Of a stretch of 56,649 bases of DNA, positions 8,543 to 24,654 are shown one piece after another. Under the pieces are notes generated by a model. The model searched no databases. It saw nothing but the letters and a program-made list of their open reading frames with translations, and was not told where the DNA came from. The translations under genes and the position numbers were made by a program. How positions within the stretch are numbered: position 1 is the first letter of the stretch; each line of letters starts with the position of its first letter. Source of the stretch: an uncultured virus (IMG/VR IMGVR_UViG_3300031413_000586) (lineage: Duplodnaviria > Heunggongvirae > Uroviricota > Caudoviricetes); the IMG/VR virus record IMGVR_UViG_3300031413_000586; one strand, written 5' to 3'.

Positions 8543-8685
8543 GTAGATTTCCTCCAGATAGGCAATTATAATATATTTTAAGACAATAATCAATCGATTT
8601 ACATAGCATTTTTTATCAATTCTTTCAAGGACTCTTGCATTATTTTTATTGTATGGTAATTTATTATCAAAACTACGAATTACTT

Positions 8686-9729
8686 ATGAAAAATATATCA
8701 TTAACAGCATTAGCGATTTTAAGTCTTAGCACAGCACAAGCAGATTATAAAGTGGTCGTACCTCTTGAGATTTCCAATAGCGGAGTACTTGAAAACGGTT
8801 CAATCAAGTTTTCTGATAGTCAAAACGAAAGTTGGTCAAAAATAACACCATTGACTAGTGATTGGTCAAATACAGGTAAACCATCTAATTGTACAAACTG
8901 GAGTCCTGAACCATCCACTGTAAATATTGATGAATCTTTCACACAAACAGCTACTGATTGTGAACAAGAACAGACTAGAACAGTACAAGAACGTGAGCAA
9001 GAAACGACATCACTTGCAATTAGAAATGTTGGTTCTCCTACGTCAGAATATCGAACAACAGTGGGTACGGATACAAGAGATAGTAAAGGCACGATGGAAG
9101 GATGGGAAGCATTTGCTGATGCTAGAAAACTTAGTAAGCAATGGAATGATCTTCCATGGTATACCAGTGACTTGACAGAAATACCATATGTACCCTATCC
9201 TCAAACAACTGCAGACTATATCTATTTAAGTGGTAATCAGCTAGCAAACGTAAATGGATTTAAAAATCTAACCAGCGTAAACTATCTTTATCTCAATGAC
9301 AACCAACTTACCAATATAGATGGATTAAGAAACCTAACAAGTGTCAATACGCTTTATCTATATCAAAATAAATTGAGCAACGTCGATGCATTAATCAATT
9401 TAACAAGTGTGCAAACCCTTAATATCGGTGAAAATCAATTAACAAACGTTAATGGACTAAGAAACCTAACAAGTGTAGGACAACTTTCTCTAAATGACAA
9501 TCAATTGACAAATTTAGATGGATTAAGTAATCTAACAAGCGTTAACAATCTCTACTTGAATGAAAATAAATTGACAAATCTAGATGGATTAAGAAATATT
9601 CAACTTGGTCAAAATATCTGGCTTTCTGGCAGCTATTCAGGTCCAAAACTAGCTGCTTCAACTAGATTTTGTACACTCAATGATGAATCAAAGTTTGATT
9701 TTATGAAAAAGTCTCAAATTTGCGAATGA
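8686..9729 (+). CDS. secreted leucine-rich repeat protein (internalin-like 22-aa LRRs)
   Basis: Signal peptide MKNISLTALAILSLSTAQA; Trp/Cys/Thr-rich module; six LxLxxNxLTNxxGLxNLTSV repeats. Confidence 0.85.
   Translation: MKNISLTALAILSLSTAQADYKVVVPLEISNSGVLENGSIKFSDSQNESWSKITPLTSDWSNTGKPSNCTNWSPEPSTVNIDESFTQTATDCEQEQTRTVQEREQETTSLAIRNVGSPTSEYRTTVGTDTRDSKGTMEGWEAFADARKLSKQWNDLPWYTSDLTEIPYVPYPQTTADYIYLSGNQLANVNGFKNLTSVNYLYLNDNQLTNIDGLRNLTSVNTLYLYQNKLSNVDALINLTSVQTLNIGENQLTNVNGLRNLTSVGQLSLNDNQLTNLDGLSNLTSVNNLYLNENKLTNLDGLRNIQLGQNIWLSGSYSGPKLAASTRFCTLNDESKFDFMKKSQICE
9223..9618 (+). repeat. six degenerate 66-bp tandem coding repeats (LRR)
   Basis: Recurring aacctaacaagtgt / ttgacaaat..agatggattaa units at 66-nt period. 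Confidence 0.8.
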
Positions 9730-9849: not shown

Positions 9850-10590
9850 ATGATTCTTCTGATGTTTAAGTTCATTTTGTTTGCCTCTCTTATTGTTGCT
9901 TCATTTTCTATCAATGCAATGAATCGCAATATTGTTATACATGATAGAGCAGGACTTGATGAAGAAATGAAATACCTTTCGAAAAATTTTGATGCAGAAA
10001 AGCCTGACACCCTTATTCGATTAGTGGATTATGCTATGAGACATTCAGATGAACGTGGTTACATTTTAAATAATTTTGCAATGAAGCTTTCAAAAGATAC
10101 AGAAAAGATGAACAACATACAATTTATTGTAGATTACATTTCTAATCATATTGTAAGTCTTGACAATAACAATATTCCAAAAAACGGAGAATGGAGTGGT
10201 CAATCAGGTCATTCAAATTTTTTTATTGATGGTGATACAAAATCATTTTCACGTAATGAAGTAAGACAAGCTGCACCACAAGGAATTCCTTTTGAATATG
10301 GATATCCTAATTTTTCAAAATTTAAAATAGGTGAATCAATACCTATAAAAAATCCATCAGGATCTTATGAATTTGATTATGAAAAAGTTGTAGAAAATCT
10401 GATATTTGAGAAAAAATCTCTTAATGGTATGATTTTTAATAGTAAAGAAGAATTAAATGAATACTTTCAATCGAATTATGCAGATCTTCAATACTCTCTT
10501 CATGATAATACATTTGAATTAATACCTAATATTGTATCTTCTGTTATTGACTATAAAGTGCCACATATATCAAAAAGAAAACCGCATTAA
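9850..10590 (+). CDS. secreted protein with degenerate HNH/colicin-DNase-like C-terminal domain
   Basis: Signal peptide; GEWSGQSGHS..GIPFEYGYPNFS..FELIP resemble toxin HNH domains, His cluster absent. Confidence 0.5.
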   Translation: MILLMFKFILFASLIVASFSINAMNRNIVIHDRAGLDEEMKYLSKNFDAEKPDTLIRLVDYAMRHSDERGYILNNFAMKLSKDTEKMNNIQFIVDYISNHIVSLDNNNIPKNGEWSGQSGHSNFFIDGDTKSFSRNEVRQAAPQGIPFEYGYPNFSKFKIGESIPIKNPSGSYEFDYEKVVENLIFEKKSLNGMIFNSKEELNEYFQSNYADLQYSLHDNTFELIPNIVSSVIDYKVPHISKRKPH

Positions 10591-11027
10591 GCGGTTTCTC
10601 TTTCTTGCACATAATAATTCATTAGAAAATTAATTTCGTCTTTTTCTAGTCCAAAGAATTTTTTATACCTATCATGCAATCTATTTATTGTATAGTTATT
10701 GTGTTTACCTAGTATTGTAATAGCTGGTTCTCCATAAGCTTTAAGAATCGTAGACATCAGTTCGGCTATATTATAAATCTCTGTTTTAAATTTCTGATGA
10801 TAGGTTAGCGGATTTTTGTCTTTTTCATAATGACTATCTCTAATAGTAATATTAATATCTTGTCCTTTTATTATGGCATACATCATAAAATCCCCCAGTG
10901 TTAAATCATATTTATTTTTTTTATAATTTTCTCTAAAATGAATAACTGCTTTTTTGATAACTGCTTTTTTATCAAAAACAAGAGTTTCTGTATTTGTTTC
11001 TAGTACATTGTTAGTTTGTGTGTTCAT
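10587..11027 (-). CDS. hypothetical protein, distant paralog of 11652..12005
   Basis: LGDFMMYAIIKGQDI vs LDDYVLYALLREKQDF; AGGAG SD. Confidence 0.7.
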   Translation of the reverse strand: MNTQTNNVLETNTETLVFDKKAVIKKAVIHFRENYKKNKYDLTLGDFMMYAIIKGQDINITIRDSHYEKDKNPLTYHQKFKTEIYNIAELMSTILKAYGEPAITILGKHNNYTINRLHDRYKKFFGLEKDEINFLMNYYVQERETA

Positions 11028-11029
11028 GA

Positions 11030-11617
11030 TTATTCTCCTAATAGTTCATTGATTTTTTTGCCGATTTTGTTTATTTTTTTCCATTTGATTTTAAAGCTAG
11101 TAGATTCAATGCCGCCAAACATGGACGCATTACTGTGAATTTCACAAAGAGCCGTAATCAAAAGTGTAGTGGCGAATGGTTGACTAAAGAATTGGTCGAA
11201 ATCATCCATTTTTAGTAAATGAATATCCATATCTCGCTCTATTAACTGAGCCTGAATTTCTGTGCCGCCGATTTGACGCCAAATGGCACCGGATATTTTT
11301 GCATGTTCAGGAAAGTGTCGTTTACCTTCATCATCCGTAGTTAGACAAAAAGGTTTTCCACAATCATGATAAATTTGATAGGTATTAATATCCTTATCAT
11401 TTTCAAGAGACAACCAAATTTTAGGATTATTAATCCATTCAGGTAATTTCCATTCAAATATTAAAGGACTTCCATTAATAATATGATCTTTAAGATCATG
11501 AAAGTATTTATTAACAGATAAACCATGTTGAAGTACATTCATTTCTTGTGTTTGTTCACAAGATTTCATTGCTTTTATGAGTTTTTTAAAGTTGATATTA
11601 TCAATCTATGTGTTCAT
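11030..11617 (-). CDS. HD-domain phosphohydrolase with in-frame amber at codon 4
   Basis: QHGLSV..YHDCGKP..HFPEHA..MDIH; SD TAGGAG precedes ATG 11617, in frame with ORF 11030..11569 via ATG AAC ACA TAG ATT GAT AAT. Confidence 0.75.
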
Positions 11618-11651
11618 TTTTTAGCTCCTATTAAGTTGTTTTATTATATCA

Positions 11652-12005
11652 TTAATTTGTATATTTAGCCAATTGTTTTTTGAAAGATTCCAAGATTTCC
11701 ACTAGTTTTTCACTGGTCAAATCGATACCTAATCTAGTCGCATAATATCTATAAATATTACCTTTTTTTGACAACTCGTCGTTTGCGGCCAAATTGGTAA
11801 ATGTTTTAATGTATTGTTTCGCAATGTCAATAGCTTGTTGTTTATTGTGAGCACATTTAGTGAAATCTTGTTTTTCTCTTAATAATGCATATAGAACATA
11901 ATCATCCAGAAACAAGACTTTAACTTTATGACCGTTGGCATTTTTTGTTGGACGTGTCACTTTTAAAAATGTTTTCATATTGTCTATCATTGATTTTGTA
12001 TTCAT
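11652..12005 (-). CDS. hypothetical protein
   Basis: 117 aa ORF, AAGGAG SD, ATGA overlap with upstream gene. Confidence 0.7.
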   Translation of the reverse strand: MNTKSMIDNMKTFLKVTRPTKNANGHKVKVLFLDDYVLYALLREKQDFTKCAHNKQQAIDIAKQYIKTFTNLAANDELSKKGNIYRYYATRLGIDLTSEKLVEILESFKKQLAKYTN

Positions 12006-12778
12006 TTTGTTGCTCCTTTTAAAAAATCGTTAAGTGAATTGTATTGTTTGAAGTCTTTTTTGTTTGTAATTGTTTGTATAAATTCAGGTGATTCAAAAAA
12101 CTCCATGCCTTCTGGTGTAAACTCTAGATCGTGCCACGTTTCTTTATTTAATCTCCACATAACTTCAATATTTCCATTTTCCATTTGAAATAGGACAAGA
12201 TTATCAGGAATATCAGTCATGGAAGTAAAGAATTGAACGAATGAATCCAACGAATTTAAATCAACAGTCTTTTCGTCACCATGCTCTCCCCAACCATGAT
12301 CACGCATAACAATATCAAGCAGCATTTTGCAGACACTTTTAGAAAGTTTTTCCAATATTGGACTGACAATTAATAAACGTGCTTGATATGCTTCACTCGC
12401 TTTTTTTGGATACATAAATTTGAAAGACGTGTGTAACTTCGATGGCAGTATCAATCCATCATCAAAACCATGAACAAATAAATAGGCTCCGTCAGGCTGG
12501 AAGTTAATATCAACAATTTCATTGTTGACTTTCCAATTAATTGATACATAACCTTCATAATCGAAGAATATCCCCAAGTCTTCTGGCAATTTATCTTTTG
12601 TGTTTATCAAAAAAATAATCATGTCAGATAATGATTGAGTATTCATTGGTGATCCATTTTGACCATCCCAGTTGGACTGTATAGCCGCTAAAGATAATAA
12701 TCTTTCAGTATTTCTATTACCTAAAAAATCTTTATGGCTATTAATCATTTTAATTTGTATATCGTGATCTATATTCAT
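12002..12778 (-). CDS. hypothetical protein with two internal repeat domains
   Basis: NWDGQNG..SLSDM..LGIFFDYEGYVSINW and GWGEHG..SLDSF..LVLFQMENGNIEVMW; start at ATG after AAGGAG. Confidence 0.7.
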   Translation of the reverse strand: MNIDHDIQIKMINSHKDFLGNRNTERLLSLAAIQSNWDGQNGSPMNTQSLSDMIIFLINTKDKLPEDLGIFFDYEGYVSINWKVNNEIVDINFQPDGAYLFVHGFDDGLILPSKLHTSFKFMYPKKASEAYQARLLIVSPILEKLSKSVCKMLLDIVMRDHGWGEHGDEKTVDLNSLDSFVQFFTSMTDIPDNLVLFQMENGNIEVMWRLNKETWHDLEFTPEGMEFFESPEFIQTITNKKDFKQYNSLNDFLKGATK

Positions 12779-12789
12779 GAATTTTCTCC

Positions 12790-13251
12790 TTAAACACATT
12801 GAAATTTTTTAGTGATTGATCTGATTTCTTCTTTTGTGCATGGACCAATACCAAGAGCAGTAATAATAGGTGAACCGTCAAAATGAGGTGGAAATATATG
12901 ATCTTGATCAACAATCAATGCACAAGGTAAACCAAGAGCGATAGCTTGATTATAGGCTTTAATCAAATGATCGTCATTTTTGGCTTTGAGAGTTACTTTA
13001 GAACCACCTGATTGACGATTTCTGTATTTGGAAACTTTTTCAGGATGTGTTTCAATAGCTGCCATTAAAGCATCGGTATACGCATGTCCAGCTTGTGCAG
13101 AAAGTTTTCCGACAGGCATTTCGAGATCGTTTCGAATGATTGCATAAATATAATGATGGGCATTTTTGTCCGCAGGGACGAATTGTGTGTACTTGCTAAG
13201 AATTTCTTCTTTTGTGATGATTTGGTTTTCTTGATTATCAATCTACAACAT
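12790..13251 (-). CDS. peptidyl-tRNA hydrolase, Pth2 family, with in-frame amber at codon 3
   Basis: YAIIRNDLEMPVGKLSAQAGHA, KVTLK, ITALGIGP Pth2 motifs; first strand lies upstream of ATG 13119; SD AAAGGAG then ATG TTG TAG ATT GAT AAT in frame. Confidence 0.85.
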
Positions 13252-13283
13252 GGTGTAATCTCCTTTGGTTTATTTGTACTATA

Positions 13284-13312
13284 AGTCTAACAATAAAAAA
13301 TCATTAAGTCAA
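13284..13312 (-). promoter_or_regulatory. sigma70-like promoter of the pth2-HD operon
   Basis: TTGACT-17 nt-TAGACT on minus strand. Confidence 0.6.
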
Positions 13313-19996: not shown

Positions 19997-20074
19997 GGGG
20001 GCACATGTTCCAAGGGATGGCGAGTTTGCCTTGCACGCAGACTGTGAAGAGTTCGATTCTCTTTGTCTCCACCA
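19997..20074 (+). tRNA. tRNA-Ala(TGC), atypical D arm
   Basis: GGGGGCA/TGTCTCC acceptor with G3:U70, loop CT-TGC-AC, TTCGATT, ACCA. Confidence 0.8.
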
Positions 20075-20081
20075 AATTTAT

Positions 20082-20156
20082 GGGCTGTTAGTTTAGCTGG
20101 AAAAATATCTGCCTTGCACGCAGAAGTACAGGGTTCGAGTCCCTGACGGTCCACCA
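20082..20156 (+). tRNA. tRNA-Ala(TGC)
   Basis: Canonical cloverleaf, TCTGC-CTTGCAC-GCAGA, G3:U70, ACCA. Confidence 0.92.
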
Positions 20157-20171
20157 GATTAGTAATAATAT

Positions 20172-20248
20172 GTCTGCGTAGCTCAGTTGGATAGAGCATC
20201 CGCCTTCTAAGCGGATGGTCGTTGGTTCGAATCCAACCGCAGACGCCA
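20172..20248 (+). tRNA. tRNA-Arg(TCT)
   Basis: Canonical cloverleaf, TCCGC-CTTCTAA-GCGGA, GCCA. Confidence 0.95.
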
Positions 20249-20256
20249 AATAAAAT

Positions 20257-20333
20257 GGGGCTTTTAGTTTAACGGGGAAAACGTTGATTCATAGCGGATC
20301 ATCAACATGGTTCAAGTCCATGTAGCTCCACCA
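20257..20333 (+). ncRNA. tRNA-like RNA with Ala-type acceptor and aberrant anticodon arm
   Basis: GGGGCT/AGCTCC-ACCA (G3:U70), D stem GTTT/AAAC, T arm CATGG-TTCAAGT-CCATG; anticodon arm lacks a canonical 7-nt U33 loop. Confidence 0.65.
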
Positions 20334-20342
20334 GATTATTAT

Positions 20343-20413
20343 GGGGTTTTAGTTTAATAGGAAAACGCTGGGGAAACCCGGAATTGTAAGGTCGAAACTT
20401 ACAGACTCCACCA
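20343..20413 (+). ncRNA. anticodon-less tRNA-Ala mimic (GAAA tetraloop)
   Basis: GGGGTTT/AGACTCC-ACCA, D stem GTTT/AAAC, CTGGG-GAAA-CCCGG, T arm GTAAG-GTCGAAA-CTTAC. Confidence 0.75.
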
Positions 20414-20419
20414 CTTTAT

Positions 20420-20495
20420 GTTCTCATAGCTCAACTGGAAGAGCAATGACCTTCTAAGTCATAGGTTGTAGGTTCGAGTCCTACTGGGAATACCA
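20420..20495 (+). tRNA. tRNA-Arg(TCT)
   Basis: Cloverleaf, ATGAC-CTTCTAA-GTCAT, ACCA. Confidence 0.92.
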
Positions 20496-20501
20496 AATTG
20501 T

Positions 20502-20578
20502 GTCCGTGTAGCTCAGATGGATAGAGCATCTGCCTCCTAAGTGGAAGGTCATAGGTTCGAATCCTATTACGGACACCA
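20502..20578 (+). tRNA. tRNA-Arg(CCT)
   Basis: Cloverleaf, TCTGC-CTCCTAA-GTGGA, ACCA. Confidence 0.92.
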
Positions 20579-20658
20579 AATACGGGGACTTATCTATAAA
20601 GGATAGGTATTATTGAAATCGTTGGGTTGGGATATTCAATAGAATTAAAGTTGTATAT

Positions 20659-20735
20659 GGGATTTTAGCTCAGTTGGTTAGAGCATCCGACTCATAATCG
20701 GCAGGCCGTAGGTTCAAGTCCTACAAGTCCCACCA
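20659..20735 (+). tRNA. tRNA with CAT anticodon, probably tRNA-Ile2 (lysidine, reads AUA)
   Basis: Cloverleaf, CCGA-CTCATAA-TCGG; arm resembles bacterial Ile2; elongator Met not excluded. Confidence 0.85.
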
Positions 20736-20764
20736 ATTTAAGATATTTTATGCTTGGGAGTTAA

Positions 20765-21160
20765 ATGATGGATTATCAAAAGCATATGTTAGATTTAGCT
20801 TGTAATAAAAATTTTAGCGTTGGTGATGAAGTTTTTGTATTGATTGATTACTCATTAGTCTCCGGTTTCATATTAAAAGTCAATGACAAAAGTATTAAAA
20901 TAAAATTGAATGCAAGTTTTGGTGTTAATTCATATGAAAAAAATTGCAAACCAGAAAAAGTAGTTAGAAAAGTTGATTATGCTGTACTAGTTTGGGAATG
21001 CTGGAAAGGGGTCAATGGCCGAGGTGGATATCGATTAGATACAATAATGTATCCAGATTTACAAAAGCCAGTTGATAAAATTAGACCTAATACATATTTG
21101 AATGAAAGTGAATTTGGGGAAGTATCAGATTTTAGTAAAAAGCGGTATTTAGAAGTATAG
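20765..21160 (+). CDS. hypothetical protein inside tRNA array
   Basis: 131 aa ORF, GGGAG SD. Confidence 0.7.
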   Translation: MMDYQKHMLDLACNKNFSVGDEVFVLIDYSLVSGFILKVNDKSIKIKLNASFGVNSYEKNCKPEKVVRKVDYAVLVWECWKGVNGRGGYRLDTIMYPDLQKPVDKIRPNTYLNESEFGEVSDFSKKRYLEV

Positions 21161-21211
21161 TGACAATAAAAAATTGACGATTTTGATATTGTCTGTTTAA
21201 AAAAATATTAT

Positions 21212-21286
21212 GGTTCTGTAGCATAACGGTAAATGCACCCCGCTCATAACGGGATGATTAAGGTTCGATTCCTTGCAGAACCACCA
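21212..21286 (+). tRNA. tRNA with CAT anticodon (Ile2 or Met)
   Basis: GGTTCTG/CAGAACC, CCCG-CTCATAA-CGGG, TTCGATT, ACCA. Confidence 0.85.
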
Positions 21287-21292
21287 ATTAAT

Positions 21293-21414
21293 AGAGAGAT
21301 AGCTTAATGGGAAAGCGGCCTGTGTCAGCAGGTGAGTTACAATCCTTTCAAAGTGTAAATTTTTTATTTATCTTGATTGAGATAGCGATAATGGTTCAAA
21401 TCCATTTCTTTCTG
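21293..21414 (+). ncRNA. tRNA-Asp(GTC)-like RNA with 56-nt variable-region insertion, no encoded CCA
   Basis: AGAGAGA/TCTTTCT+G73, D stem GCTT/AAGC, GCCTG-TGTCAG-CAGGT, T arm AATGG-TTCAAAT-CCATT. Confidence 0.55.
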
Positions 21415-21423
21415 CTTCATTAT

Positions 21424-21499
21424 GGGCTGGTAGTTCAGTTGGGAGAACGCTTGCATGGCATGCAAGAGGTCGTGGGTTCGAACCCCATCCGGTCCACCA
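21424..21499 (+). tRNA. tRNA-Ala(GGC)
   Basis: Canonical cloverleaf, CTTGC-ATGGCAT-GCAAG, G3:U70, ACCA. Confidence 0.95.
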
Positions 21500-21512
21500 A
21501 ATAATTTACAAT

Positions 21513-21587
21513 GGTACTCTAGCATAATGGCTAATGCTATCCGCTCATAACGGATTAATCAAGCGTTGATTCCTTGGATGACTACCA
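21513..21587 (+). pseudogene. degenerate tRNA(CAT), paralog of 21212..21286
   Basis: Intact D and anticodon arms (ATCCG-CTCATAA-CGGAT), mismatched acceptor stem and altered T loop. Confidence 0.6.
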
Positions 21588-21681
21588 AATAAAATAGAGA
21601 GAATTTTATAGTTCTCTTTTTTATTATCTATTTTTTCATTTTTTTGTTATATTAAAGAATATACCTTAAATAGGAGTACAT

Positions 21682-22328
21682 ATGGGCGGATTAGTCAACA
21701 CATCAATTAGATTTGAAGACGGTAAAATATTAAATACATTGATATATACCAGTTCAATAGATATTTTATTTACTTCAAAGGCTTTTTATGAACGTGATAA
21801 AAAATCAATAAAAAAATTGATTTCTAAAATAAAAATGAACACTTGGAAAGATGAAAAATTTGAGGCGGTTGCACCTTATCATTACGGTCTTATTACTGCT
21901 GATTTCATTTCAAACACTATCATTGATATGCAAGGATATTGTAGTATAGGCAAGTATATATTATCCAGTTTTGATTTACCTGCTCTTGAAAATCTGGAAG
22001 TTTATAAAAAATCTAAATATCATGATTATGAAATTTTCTAAACAATCAAGTTTTAGGATTGAGTTATTATGATGAAGACAATAGAAAAATCATCATTAAT
22101 AAAATAGATACCAATCTTGATACATTTGAAGATATTTATGCTTATATTCTTAATATAAATGATATCTATCCTATGTTGAAAATTATATATGATACTCATT
22201 GTAACATTATAAAAATTGAAGATTACGATTGTCAAAGTTATTTAAATACTTTATCTTCCATTAATTATCCATTGACTACAAACGATCATGTTTTATTCAA
22301 TGAATTCATTGACGAGCATTCCAAATGA
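21682..22328 (+). pseudogene. hypothetical gene probably split by a frameshift near 22035
   Basis: ORF 21682..22041 (AGGAG SD) overlaps a -1 frame open from 22032 to 22328 that lacks a good start. Confidence 0.45.
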
Positions 22329-22456
22329 CGATTAATAGAAAATTAATCATATACCTATAAAAGCAGAGAGCAATTTTTACCTAAAATCTATTATCAAAAT
22401 AGGCTTTATTTTTTAGTATTTTAATGCTATAATTGTGTTCTCAAAAGAGGTGTATT

Positions 22457-23113
22457 ATGAAAAATATAGTCAAATTTATGAAAAAAGATTTCATCTCAAA
22501 ACTTGTGATTTGTAATTTTTTATTCATAGCTATCTATAGTAGTTATTATTTTCAGCATCTTTCAAAGATAACAGCAAGTTTTATAGTGGGTATCTTTGTC
22601 TATTCATTGTTCGCCATTTATCGTTTATATACCCAAAAAGTAACTATCAAGTTTGAACATTTTTATCTGCTGCCTATCATTATTTTTTTATATCTAGGCA
22701 TAATGGCTGTTTATACTCGATATAATGATTTGAGTATCGTCAATCCTTCTTCAATACCACAGGCTATTGAAAGAGTTTTTGATTTTTTTGCACTAGCTAT
22801 GCTTGCATATAATGGTTTACTGGTAATGGTCAGTATAATTGCTTCTAAATCAGCACATACATATTTGAAGACCTGTAAACATAACATTCTAGTAATGACA
22901 GGATCAGAACCAGATTTTATTCACTATAAAATGATGAGACATAAAGAAAGCCATTTGGCATTTAGCGATTCAATTTTTACAATAAAAGGCTATATTCATA
23001 ATGGAATGGAACTTTCTTATAGGCAAATTTATGATTATATGAAAGAACAACAACGTACTTTTGAGTCTTTGAGTGAAGATGATTTTAATATTATACACAT
23101 GTTACATATTTAA
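22457..23113 (+). CDS. membrane protein (about 4 TM), C-terminal M(-4) tag
   Basis: Hydrophobic segments; ends DDFNIIHMLHI; GAGG SD. Confidence 0.7.
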   Translation: MKNIVKFMKKDFISKLVICNFLFIAIYSSYYFQHLSKITASFIVGIFVYSLFAIYRLYTQKVTIKFEHFYLLPIIIFLYLGIMAVYTRYNDLSIVNPSSIPQAIERVFDFFALAMLAYNGLLVMVSIIASKSAHTYLKTCKHNILVMTGSEPDFIHYKMMRHKESHLAFSDSIFTIKGYIHNGMELSYRQIYDYMKEQQRTFESLSEDDFNIIHMLHI

Positions 23114-23150
23114 TTGTCTTTCCAAAATAATATAGTATAGTAATCATTAG

Positions 23151-23227
23151 GCTGATATAGCTTAATTGGATAAAGTATTTGATTCCGAATCAAATGAATG
23201 TGGGTTCGAATCCCATTGTCAGCACCA
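23151..23227 (+). tRNA. tRNA-Arg(CCG)
   Basis: GCTGATA/TGTCAGC, TTTGA-TTCCGAA-TCAAA, TTCGAAT, ACCA. Confidence 0.88.
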
Positions 23228-23829: not shown

Positions 23830-24654
23830 ATGAAACGCTTGGATCATGATGCTAATACACAAAAAGAAGTTATTAATTATTTTCAGACAAGAGCAAGACA
23901 ACTGTTGGTTGAGGGATTTATCTGGCAAAAGGATATTATTCCGGCAGTGGGTGGTATTGTTACTACGTTCAAGAAAGATGATGAGTTTTTCAAATCATAT
24001 TATGTGTTTGAATCAGAACGAGGAAAAGGCTATTCTAGTCAAGTAATAGGATCTATTCCTGAGCAGATAGTGACAGTTCCAGATTGTCAAATTGAAAACT
24101 TTTTAAGGGCTAAAGGCAAAGCTTATGTGCTAGCCGGTTCTTTTACCGAATCTACTGAATACAAGGCCATCCAAGCGTTTTATAGTGATGAAAGGGCAGC
24201 ACGCAGTCAATGTTATCTTATGAACCATATCGATGAAGGGTTAATGGTAATGTCATACTTTAATGCTAGTGAGGCAGCAAAGAAAGCTTTCTGCATTCAT
24301 CCATTGGTTCAAAATAGTCAAGATTTAGCTACCAATTGGAACGTTGTAAAAAATCAAGTTTCATCAGAGGTTTTGGGTTTGGCAATGGAGTATCGTAATA
24401 TTGCAAATGCCTATCTGTCTCATAGAGAAATTAAAAGTATAGATGAAATTGAATTGAGTCCAATTGATGATGTAAACTTGATGTTGATTGGTGATAAAGT
24501 TCAAAATTATAAGGACTTTTTAATTTATCATTATGGAACACATCCTAAAAGTGATCGACTTGATGCATATTTCAAAAATTGGCTACTCAAATTGAATGTA
24601 GACGAGTCTGTTTTTGTTGAATTGAGCAATCAACTTAAAGCGATTGAAATTTAA
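23830..24654 (+). CDS. hypothetical protein, GNAT-like N-terminus and HD-like C-terminus
   Basis: YVFESERGKGY; LMNHIDEGL..CIHPLVQ..LIGDKVQN; GAGGA SD. Confidence 0.55.
   Translation: MKRLDHDANTQKEVINYFQTRARQLLVEGFIWQKDIIPAVGGIVTTFKKDDEFFKSYYVFESERGKGYSSQVIGSIPEQIVTVPDCQIENFLRAKGKAYVLAGSFTESTEYKAIQAFYSDERAARSQCYLMNHIDEGLMVMSYFNASEAAKKAFCIHPLVQNSQDLATNWNVVKNQVSSEVLGLAMEYRNIANAYLSHREIKSIDEIELSPIDDVNLMLIGDKVQNYKDFLIYHYGTHPKSDRLDAYFKNWLLKLNVDESVFVELSNQLKAIEI

Follow-up and report, generated by a model that had tools for sequence, protein, structure and literature searches.

A five-gene operon lies on the minus strand of a 56,649-nt stretch of DNA (hereafter the window, whose coordinates are used unless another sequence is named) from an uncultured Caudoviricetes virus, IMG/VR record IMGVR_UViG_3300031413_000586. 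It runs from a promoter-like site (13312-13284) down to a terminator-like hairpin (10598-10578). Two of its genes, one for a protein resembling peptidyl-tRNA hydrolases of the PTH2 family (Pth2-like) and one for a protein resembling HD-domain phosphohydrolases (HD-like), begin with a very short leader that ends in an in-frame amber codon (TAG). The Pth2-like gene reads AAAGGAG-N8-ATG TTG TAG ATT GAT AAT, where AAAGGAG is the Shine-Dalgarno (SD) sequence, and its frame is then open until the TAA at 12790-12792; the first ATG, GTG or TTG past the TAG comes 41 codons on and is without an SD. The HD-like gene reads TAGGAG-N7-ATG AAC ACA TAG ATT GAT AAT, in frame with an open reading frame (ORF) at 11030-11569 whose own ATG has no GGAG-like motif upstream, the first canonical start being 12 codons past the TAG. 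Both leaders had been described in a first inspection of the letters without database searches (the sequence-only reading), and their coordinates and description were borne out when the sequence was checked.

That reading had argued from the identical 12-nt context of the two stops that they were neither errors nor random nonsense mutations. The 12-mer TAGATTGATAAT is present exactly twice in the window. Alone it is not beyond chance, as two sites with at most one mismatch were found against 2.5 expected in this AT-rich sequence; what goes beyond chance is that two genes of the same operon have it immediately behind SD-ATG-x. The part of the argument that dismissed error held, from three runs and from relatives, whereas the bare 12-mer is within chance, specific to one lineage and no general signal. 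Assembly or sequencing error, or recent nonsense mutation in decaying genes, is given a negligible probability. Contigs of three other DNA runs (X3, X4 and X7) span both TAG sites with the same letters; 14 differences are listed for them, all outside 11597-11608 and 13234-13245. The same arrangement is kept in five further assemblies of close relatives, and conservation of the stops extends over families at 39-88% identity. One metatranscriptome run gave contigs over 11781-11987 and 12681-13007 only, outside the TAG sites, and DNA carry-over is possible there.

The two proteins and the sequence beyond the stop

The Pth2-like protein was matched by the Pfam PTH2 model (PF01981) at residues 36-151, over profile positions 4-113 of 115 and with 79.3 bits against a cut-off of 23. 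The match starts at residue 36, and the first strand, YIYAIIRNDL, therefore sits between the TAG and the first ATG. The NCBIfam Pth2 models were matched at 6e-20 and 5e-18 with scores below both cut-offs (71.4 against 126 and 65.5 against 82). Judged from these profiles, the protein is a divergent PTH2-family member, not an equivalog, and a predicted peptidyl-tRNA hydrolase.

The HD-like protein matched the PHROG family phrog_14850 at 5.9e-63, with residues 5-193 on profile positions 78-266 of 270, and no Pfam match was obtained for it. Residues H27, H80-D81, H97, H101 and D125 are invariant in 40 sequences of the family and correspond to an H...HD...H...D metal-binding signature. Similarity to named HD families was faint: HDIG gave an E-value of 0.035, below its cut-off, the relative L192 scored 17.2 bits with PF01966 against a cut-off of 22, and the Atlas lists PF01966 in 15% of the members of one neighbouring cluster. 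A weak profile match (E 0.011) was also found to the HDxGKP...F..H stretch of PDB 3wfo/3wfr, entries named 'Poly A polymerase', which we take to be tRNA A-adding enzymes (class II tRNA nucleotidyltransferases). PTH2 and HD-like domains occur fused in both orders, PTH2 being N-terminal in L140 and L192 and C-terminal in ORF364 of phage XacN1. Because of these fusions and the location of the genes among tRNA genes, the Pth2-like and HD-like proteins would form a functional pair acting jointly on tRNA 3' ends.

The stretch between the TAG and the first start was compared with G002, the closest viral relative (78-79% protein identity; 181 kb, 58% complete), which IMG/VR calls a 'provirus'. Over the first 42 codons after the TAG of the Pth2-like gene, nucleotide differences fall 13/3/18 by codon position, with 10 codons differing synonymously and 13 non-synonymously. 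The helix lying between the TAG and Met17 in the HD-like gene of the window is also present in homologues that start ordinarily, and in fused Pth2-HD genes (L165, L183, L193 and L192) no canonical start occurs for up to 121 codons past the TAG. Comparison with relatives shows the stretch after the TAG to be protein-coding, and it supports the view that the full products of both genes would require passage of the early UAG. The sequence-only reading had made the same two claims, recognising the conserved first Pth2 strand in a start-free extension and concluding that whole enzymes need passage of the stop; the PTH2 match and the conservation as protein in both genes sustain them.

It could instead be supposed that the stop is never passed, that the proteins start at internal ATGs (Met17 in the HD-like and Met45 in the Pth2-like protein), that SD-ATG-x-TAG is an upstream ORF which tunes translation, and that the Pth2-like product is truncated or degenerate. 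Gene callers and depositors do annotate these shorter ORFs, Met17 is invariant in the HD-like family, and in XacN1 the TAG and that Met are just 4 codons apart. Yet the internal ATGs are without an SD, the mini-ORF is always in frame, the sequence from stop to Met is conserved as protein, including the first PTH2 strand, and the fused genes place a whole PTH2 domain (~110 residues) between the TAG and the first start, which makes a purely internal start very unlikely.

The early stop also accounts for the way in which GenBank misses or truncates these genes in Salmonella phage Arash (locus L216), Yersinia phage fHe-Yen9-03 (L217), XacN1 and Atu_ph07. Arash gp84c is annotated as a 50-aa fragment and the CUA tRNA of that phage is labelled tRNA-Phe, and both XacN1 ORF364 (L215) and the Atu_ph07 gene (L308) are annotated from an internal Met. 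In fHe-Yen9-03 the HD-like gene has an internal TAG at codon 47 and is annotated as a split pair, g411 and g412.

The remaining features of the operon are collected with the two leaders in Table 1. The consensus scan behind the promoter-like sites gave 14 sites in the window against 19.9 expected, which is not above chance.

Table 1. Features of the operon, in order of transcription
Feature	Position	Strand	Description
Promoter-like site TTGACT-17-TAGACT	13284..13312	-	Consensus scan; G002 has TTGACT-17-TAGAAT at the equivalent place
Pth2-like gene, whole	13251-12790	-	Leader ATG through TAA at 12790-12792
Pth2-like leader	13243..13266	-	SD AAAGGAG 13266-13260, ATG TTG 13251-13246 (ATG 13251-13249), TAG 13245-13243
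Pth2-like body	12790..13242	-	Reads on from the codon after TAG; PF01981 match
258-aa gene, ordinary SD-ATG start	12002..12778	-	No Pfam, PHROG or NCBIfam match; 255-aa ORF at the G002 counterpart position
117-aa gene	11652..12005	-	No family match (Pfam, PHROG); 120-aa ORF at the G002 counterpart position
Promoter-like site TTGGCT-18-TATAAT before HD-like gene	11672-11643	-	Consensus scan
HD-like gene, whole	11617-11030	-	Leader ATG plus body in one frame
HD-like leader	11606..11630	-	SD TAGGAG 11630-11625, ATG AAC ACA 11617-11609 (ATG 11617-11615), TAG 11608-11606
HD-like body (phrog_14850)	11030..11605	-	Reads on from the codon after TAG; PHROG match
146-aa gene, last in operon	10587..11027	-	No family match (Pfam, PHROG); 144-aa ORF at the G002 counterpart position
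Terminator-like hairpin, then T run, at operon end	10578..10598	-	5 terminator-like sites against 1.0 expected in shuffles

Conservation of the early stop among relatives

Homologues of the HD-like gene were collected at 93 loci (80 viral, 10 metagenomic and 3 from cultured phages), of which 78 are distinct and carry the HDxGK anchor; two loci without the anchor were set aside, the remainder being duplicates. At 63 of the 78 the nearest in-frame stop upstream of HDxGK is preceded, within 9 codons, by an in-frame ATG, an arrangement referred to below as the gate, and the stop is TAG in 59 of these, TGA in three and TAA in one. The other 15 loci consist of three with TAG after leaders of 10-12 codons, two with an internal TAG (fHe-Yen9-03 is one of them) and 10 with normal starts, and at four of the normally starting ones (L136, L137, L139 and L152) it is the adjacent Pth2-like gene that has the TAG instead. 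As a control, 446 further ORFs from these loci, each 100 aa or longer, were considered: only 10 show TAG after an in-frame ATG within 9 codons, and TAG is a rare stop that ends 66 of them. In the Pth2-like family TAG lies upstream of the conserved first strand in 21 of 22 viral loci, with a leader ATG within 9 codons in 20 of the 22. An alignment of homologous genes had been suggested by the sequence-only reading, and it gave a short-leader TAG in 59/78 HD-like and 20/22 Pth2-like loci; by this comparison the gate is shown to be conserved across the two gene families.

Among the closest relatives the leader codons vary. In the HD-like gene, ATG, one or two varying codons and then TAG ATT GAT AA are retained by G002 and by four metagenome relatives (73-88% identity), the leaders being ATG ACT ATG, ATG ATG or ATG AAC ATG. 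From this variation it follows that the leader peptide itself is not the conserved feature. The Pth2-like leader ATG TTG TAG ATT GAT AA is identical in L135 and L225-L228. Two of these close operon relatives, both at 78% identity, come from very long metagenome contigs (L225, 1,859,102 bases; L227, 1,539,155 bases), which may be hosts with giant prophages, wrongly joined assemblies or something bigger. In a 90-kb metagenome contig, L229, both gated genes carry TAA in place of TAG, followed by the same ATT GAT AA.

At the 63 gated HD-like loci the stop is followed by A 43 times, by G 15 times, by C five times and never by T. Purines after UAG favour suppression in E. coli. A purine after the stop, mostly A, and a very short leader appear from these alignments to be the general features of the gate, the shared ATT GAT AA context being, on the same comparison, specific to the lineage of the window. 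ATT GAT AA could reflect an N-terminus passed on by descent (Ile-Asp-Asn/Lys) or a context that is favourable. The string TAGATTGATAA also heads the unannotated Pth2-like gene of fHe-Yen9-03. When viral contigs were scanned for GGAG..ATG..TAGATTGATAA, at least 117 stretches were found, and among the matches listed only the two G002 sites and L116 are in frame with a long open frame; with so few in-frame sites among those matches, a role for TAGATTGATAA as a widespread signal was rejected. In L116, a 148-kb viral contig, an unrelated small gene starts GGAG-N..-ATG GCA TAG ATT GAT AAT, followed by 75 open codons. The idea that the two 12-mers are a target-site duplication was also dismissed: excising the 1.6-kb segment between them would still leave an in-frame TAG, and no polymorphism of that kind is seen among relatives.

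The codon after the stop bears on a different explanation, in which the mini-ORF delivers ribosomes that terminate and then re-initiate at the adjacent AUU or a nearby codon, without readthrough. In infC, the gene for IF3, an AUU start codon is the site of control, and the sequence-only reading had offered re-initiation at AUU on this model as its alternative. ATT does follow the stop in the window, and it does so in all close relatives and in 27 of the 63 gated HD-like loci. Moreover, ATTGATAA is kept though the amino acid of the third codon changes (AAT, AAC, AAA) and though the stop is TAA in L229, which looks like a constraint on nucleotides. In 24 of the 63 loci, however, the codon after the stop is a non-start (GTT, AAC, GTA, CTT, CTA or ACG), and GGC and GCA are also seen. 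The SD of the window lies 17-19 nt from the ATT, unlike infC and too far for direct initiation. Which stop ends the leader should also make no difference to re-initiation, yet 59/63 loci have TAG, and TGA appears exactly where the phage suppressor is UCA. Re-initiation at AUU is not general, because the post-stop codon is often a non-start, the rare TAG makes up nearly all of the stops, and stop and anticodon switch together; as an explanation of the gate it is unlikely.

Genetic code, suppressor tRNAs and the type of stop

The operon belongs to a very large bacteriophage that uses the standard genetic code. The window has ~30% G+C, 10 tRNA genes and weak DNA matches to jumbo phages. A second virus record, G001 (437 kb), matches window positions 23958-56649 with 100% identity over 32,692 nt; on this overlap it is taken to be the same genome, cut so that the operon falls just outside, and the joined sequence amounts to 461 kb. 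IMG/VR rates G001 as 98% complete, though the record starts at window position 23958 and omits both the tRNA array and the gated operon. A protein database assigns the window's own HD-like ORF to a 604-kb contig. With part of the window missing from G001 and a contig of that length listed, the completeness estimate understates the phage.

The sequence-only reading had stated that TAG is a normal stop elsewhere in the window. Among 63 non-overlapping ORFs of at least 100 aa the stop is TAG in 7, TAA in 47 and TGA in 9, and no other TAG-split gene was seen in the window, which agrees with that statement. It had also proposed a search of the whole genome for further gates, and for a CUA tRNA or a release-factor gene. 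Scanning the joined 461 kb for an SD, an ATG, up to 4 codons, a stop and at least 80 open codons gave seven matches, four with TAG, two with TAA and one with TGA. The four TAG matches are the Pth2-like gene, the HD-like gene, one inside a tRNA-Met gene and one ATG TAG with 96 open codons; only the Pth2-like and HD-like genes are gated in these 461 kb. TAG-joined frames are not in excess in the joined genome (TAG 18, TAA 34, TGA 37). A general reassignment of TAG is ruled out by the 7/63 ORFs that end in it, the lack of another TAG-split gene and the lack of an excess of TAG-joined frames. At position 57959 of the joined genome (minus strand), just past the end of the window, a TAG joins a 394-codon ORF to 121 open codons whose first start is 28 codons in; judged from the frame, a C-terminal readthrough extension is possible there.

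A gene for a release factor was not found in G001 or G002. Pyrrolysine decoding of UAG was likewise rejected: PylS had no match over the cut-off in either record (best 37.4 bits against 178), and the ARAGORN label 'tRNA-Pyl' merely names the anticodon. A 450-aa open frame of G001 (209597-209884, minus strand) is weakly like class II aminoacyl-tRNA synthetase cores (37 bits with the C-terminal PylS model, far below its cut-off), and by this resemblance the phage seems to encode a synthetase-like protein.

The search for a suppressor tRNA gave a single CUA tRNA in this genome, at G001:375947-376020. This 74-nt tRNA forms a regular cloverleaf, has its CCA end encoded and is flanked by tRNA-Leu(UAA) and tRNA-Met, ~400 kb from the first base of the window. 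When it was compared with other phage tRNAs by BLAST and global alignment, no clear parent emerged from which the amino acid carried could be read. The possibility that this tRNA serves as an initiator reading UAG was rejected, as the SD spacing misfits and the tRNA is without three G-C pairs in the anticodon stem, the mark of initiator tRNAs.

Among the 80 viral loci of the HD-like gene, 30 have a CUA tRNA no more than 2.5 kb away; counted over distinct TAG-gated loci, the figure is 18 of 59. For the Pth2-like gene, such a tRNA lies at most 3 kb away in 11 of 22 loci. Five near-complete TAG-gated records without a CUA tRNA in the flank (G006, G007, G008, G009 and G010) were then chosen, and four of them (G006, G007, G009 and G010) have one elsewhere. 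The cultured TAG-gated phages XacN1, Arash and fHe-Yen9-03 each have CUA tRNAs. In the terminal repeat of XacN1 (L218, 6248-7822) ARAGORN also calls a tmRNA-like gene with the tag peptide ANANTFDYALAA, ~1 kb past two CUA suppressor tRNAs.

Where the stop is TGA, the anticodon differs as well. In three viral records the HD-like gene has an early TGA; these have 2, 1 and 2 UCA tRNAs, and none of their 49, 15 and 38 tRNAs has a CUA anticodon. The Pth2-like gene of Atu_ph07 reads ATG ATT GGC GAA CAC TTT TGA ATT AAT, with TGA as codon 7, followed by the first strand and only then by the annotated ATG, and in the available text on this phage UCA is the single suppressor (PMC6102473). For the TAA-gated L229 no UUA tRNA was found within 10 kb of the gated genes; from its stop the phage is predicted to carry an ochre suppressor (UUA). 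Comparison across these genomes shows the type of stop to covary with the anticodon of the phage suppressor, and this covariation, with the CUA tRNA of the present genome, supports the suppressor-tRNA arm of the sequence-only reading.

The covariation also bears on the other arm, a release-factor sensor without a dedicated tRNA, in which near-cognate host tRNAs would read UAG when release factor 1 (RF1) is scarce or inhibited during infection and the two genes would report termination capacity. UAG is indeed read by RF1 alone, T is absent after the stop in 63/63 loci and the stop stands right after the start, either of which could lower termination efficiency, and the lineage of the window has no suppressor tRNA close to the operon. 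Such a sensor is quite unlikely, given that the stop follows the phage suppressor anticodon in four TGA cases and many TAG cases, that the HD-like gene adjoins a suppressor tRNA in a third of the loci, that a CUA tRNA is present in this genome and that no phage gene acting on RF1 is known here.

A probable suppressor-dependent gate and its counterparts

Taken together, these comparisons suggest that full expression of the two gated genes probably depends on a phage suppressor tRNA that reads the early UAG. Ribosomes would initiate at the normal SD-ATG, add one or two codons and then reach the UAG. Where RF1 wins, only a di- or tripeptide would be made; where the CUA suppressor tRNA wins, translation would continue in frame to give the full Pth2-like hydrolase or HD-like phosphohydrolase. 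Readthrough at the gate itself would follow from the conserved coding sequence beyond it, and its level must be set by competition with RF1. The output of both enzymes would in this way be tied to the presence, maturation and charging of the phage suppressor tRNA. Ribosome hopping, with take-off and landing on TTG, was discarded as a means of passing the stop: it leads to the wrong frame, and the HD-like gene is without a matching codon.

As to purpose, we favour a feedback or checkpoint that would link the tRNA-end enzymes with the condition of the phage's pool of tRNAs. More particular versions are possible: feedback from the charged tRNA pool, a check on functional phage tRNAs, or recycling of peptidyl-tRNA in step with readthrough. 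Considerably more doubtful, and offered as a tentative extension, is the wider proposal that the suppressors of standard-code jumbo phages are mainly the key to one lock, an early-stop-gated module of Pth2-like and HD-like proteins at tRNA 3' ends, forming a feedback circuit portable between stops (UAG/CUA, UGA/UCA and perhaps UAA/UUA). In such a circuit the maturation and charging of phage tRNA would set the amount of an enzyme that deacylates or repairs tRNA ends, and the phage would monitor and steady its private tRNA pool, or check the pool before later steps.

Several observations weigh against dependence on a suppressor. For every member, readthrough is a prediction from sequence comparison. 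About 1/10 of the phage genes end in an ordinary TAG, which the suppressor would read as well, an unexplained cost. No suppressor tRNA was found near the operon, either in the 56-kb window or in the 181-kb G002 (58% complete), and the link to a CUA tRNA rests on G001 being the same genome, with the operon itself lying outside G001. In G008, the fifth of the records chosen above, nothing was found but a tRNA-like sequence with a CUCUAAA loop, which scores below threshold (25.4 bits; cut-off 29). Variants with TGA or TAA are scarce, and the counts of gated loci come from related lineages and are not independent events. Finally, in several phages including XacN1 about 4 codons separate the TAG from the conserved Met, and an internal start would lose little.

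Known systems share parts of this arrangement. RF2 is autoregulated through an early in-frame UGA in prfB, which is passed by a +1 frameshift and read by the product itself. As in prfB, an early in-frame stop would make the yield depend on termination versus alternative decoding; unlike prfB, the frame here is unchanged, the products are not release factors and the competitor would be a tRNA. The bar minigenes of phage lambda cause peptidyl-tRNA drop-off that is relieved by Pth. The leaders have the same anatomy (SD, AUG, one or two codons and a stop), the likeness being one of anatomy alone, and one of the gated products is of the peptidyl-tRNA hydrolase family; however, an in-frame gene follows here and none follows bar, and the enzyme is of the Pth2 type and not bacterial Pth.

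Stop-codon-recoded phages were reportedly described by Borges et al. in 2022. Here, as in such phages, the phage's own stop-anticodon tRNA would let phage genes pass in-frame stops, and recoding has been proposed there as gene regulation. According to the available text (PMC13037316), TAG or TGA is used as sense in recoded phages that encode suppressor tRNAs themselves ('code 15' and 'code 4'), among them crAss-like, Lak and other jumbo phages. Those phages have dozens to hundreds of stop-bearing genes and an effectively changed code, whereas the present phage has the standard code and two such genes in 461 kb. Its stop lies at codon 3-4 after a leader of one to a few codons, and its targets are a conserved pair of tRNA-related enzymes. 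Compared with code 15, an in-frame TAG in conserved coding sequence and a cognate CUA tRNA are found here, and many interrupted genes are not.

Many standard-code large phages carry suppressor tRNAs without an identified target, and the window together with ~100 related loci points to a specific conserved one. No targets were identified for the suppressor tRNAs of XacN1 (PMC5852040) or of the siphophage Summit (PMC9022506) in the parts of those papers that were available, and the accessible portion of a jumbo-phage survey of 2026 discusses suppressors solely with alternative codes. XacN1 (PMC5852040) and Atu_ph07 (PMC6102473) have the same kind of tRNA and the same gated genes as the present phage. 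As far as their available text goes, the XacN1, Atu_ph07 and Summit papers looked downstream of annotated stops or merely counted stop codons, and the early stop was missed because of its position upstream of the annotated starts. In the literature at hand (including PMC13037316 and PMC8386662), supplementary tables aside, Pth2-like or HD-like genes gated by an early stop were not found described.

If the suppressor-dependent gate is real, the suppressor tRNAs of standard-code phages would gain a natural target, a tRNA-end enzyme pair with short stop-ended leaders, and their purpose would become directly testable in cultured phages. It would also explain the systematic mis-annotation of Pth2-like and HD-like genes, truncated or missing, in GenBank phage records. 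In synthetic E. coli amber-suppressor circuits, as presented in the available text, an amber codon and a separately controlled tRNA act as an AND gate or leak damper (PMC7969014, PMC13276491). Those circuits are engineered, and the present gate would be a natural and widely conserved counterpart: gene-specific nonsense suppression serving as a regulatory gate, by means of a compact, transferable switch made of a leader and a tRNA.

Two further regions of the window were noted. An ORF of 364 aa at 8635-9729 (plus strand) contains leucine-rich-repeat-like units (LTNVNGL.NLTSV...). At 19999-23227 (plus strand) lies an array of 10 tRNA genes (Ala, Arg, Met and one weak Leu-UAG), to which Rfam adds three tRNA-like sequences uncalled by ARAGORN (20343-20410, 21293-21414 and 21513-21584). 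The first of these has a shrunken anticodon arm. The second is 122 nt long with an insert of ~50 nt, and its anticodon arm suits a 6- or 8-nt loop better than a 7-nt one. ARAGORN also reports tRNAs with four-base anticodons (cgct, agaa), at L128 19832-19917 (G002) and at 413119-413194 of the joined genome (G001 part), which could be quadruplet decoders or degenerate copies.

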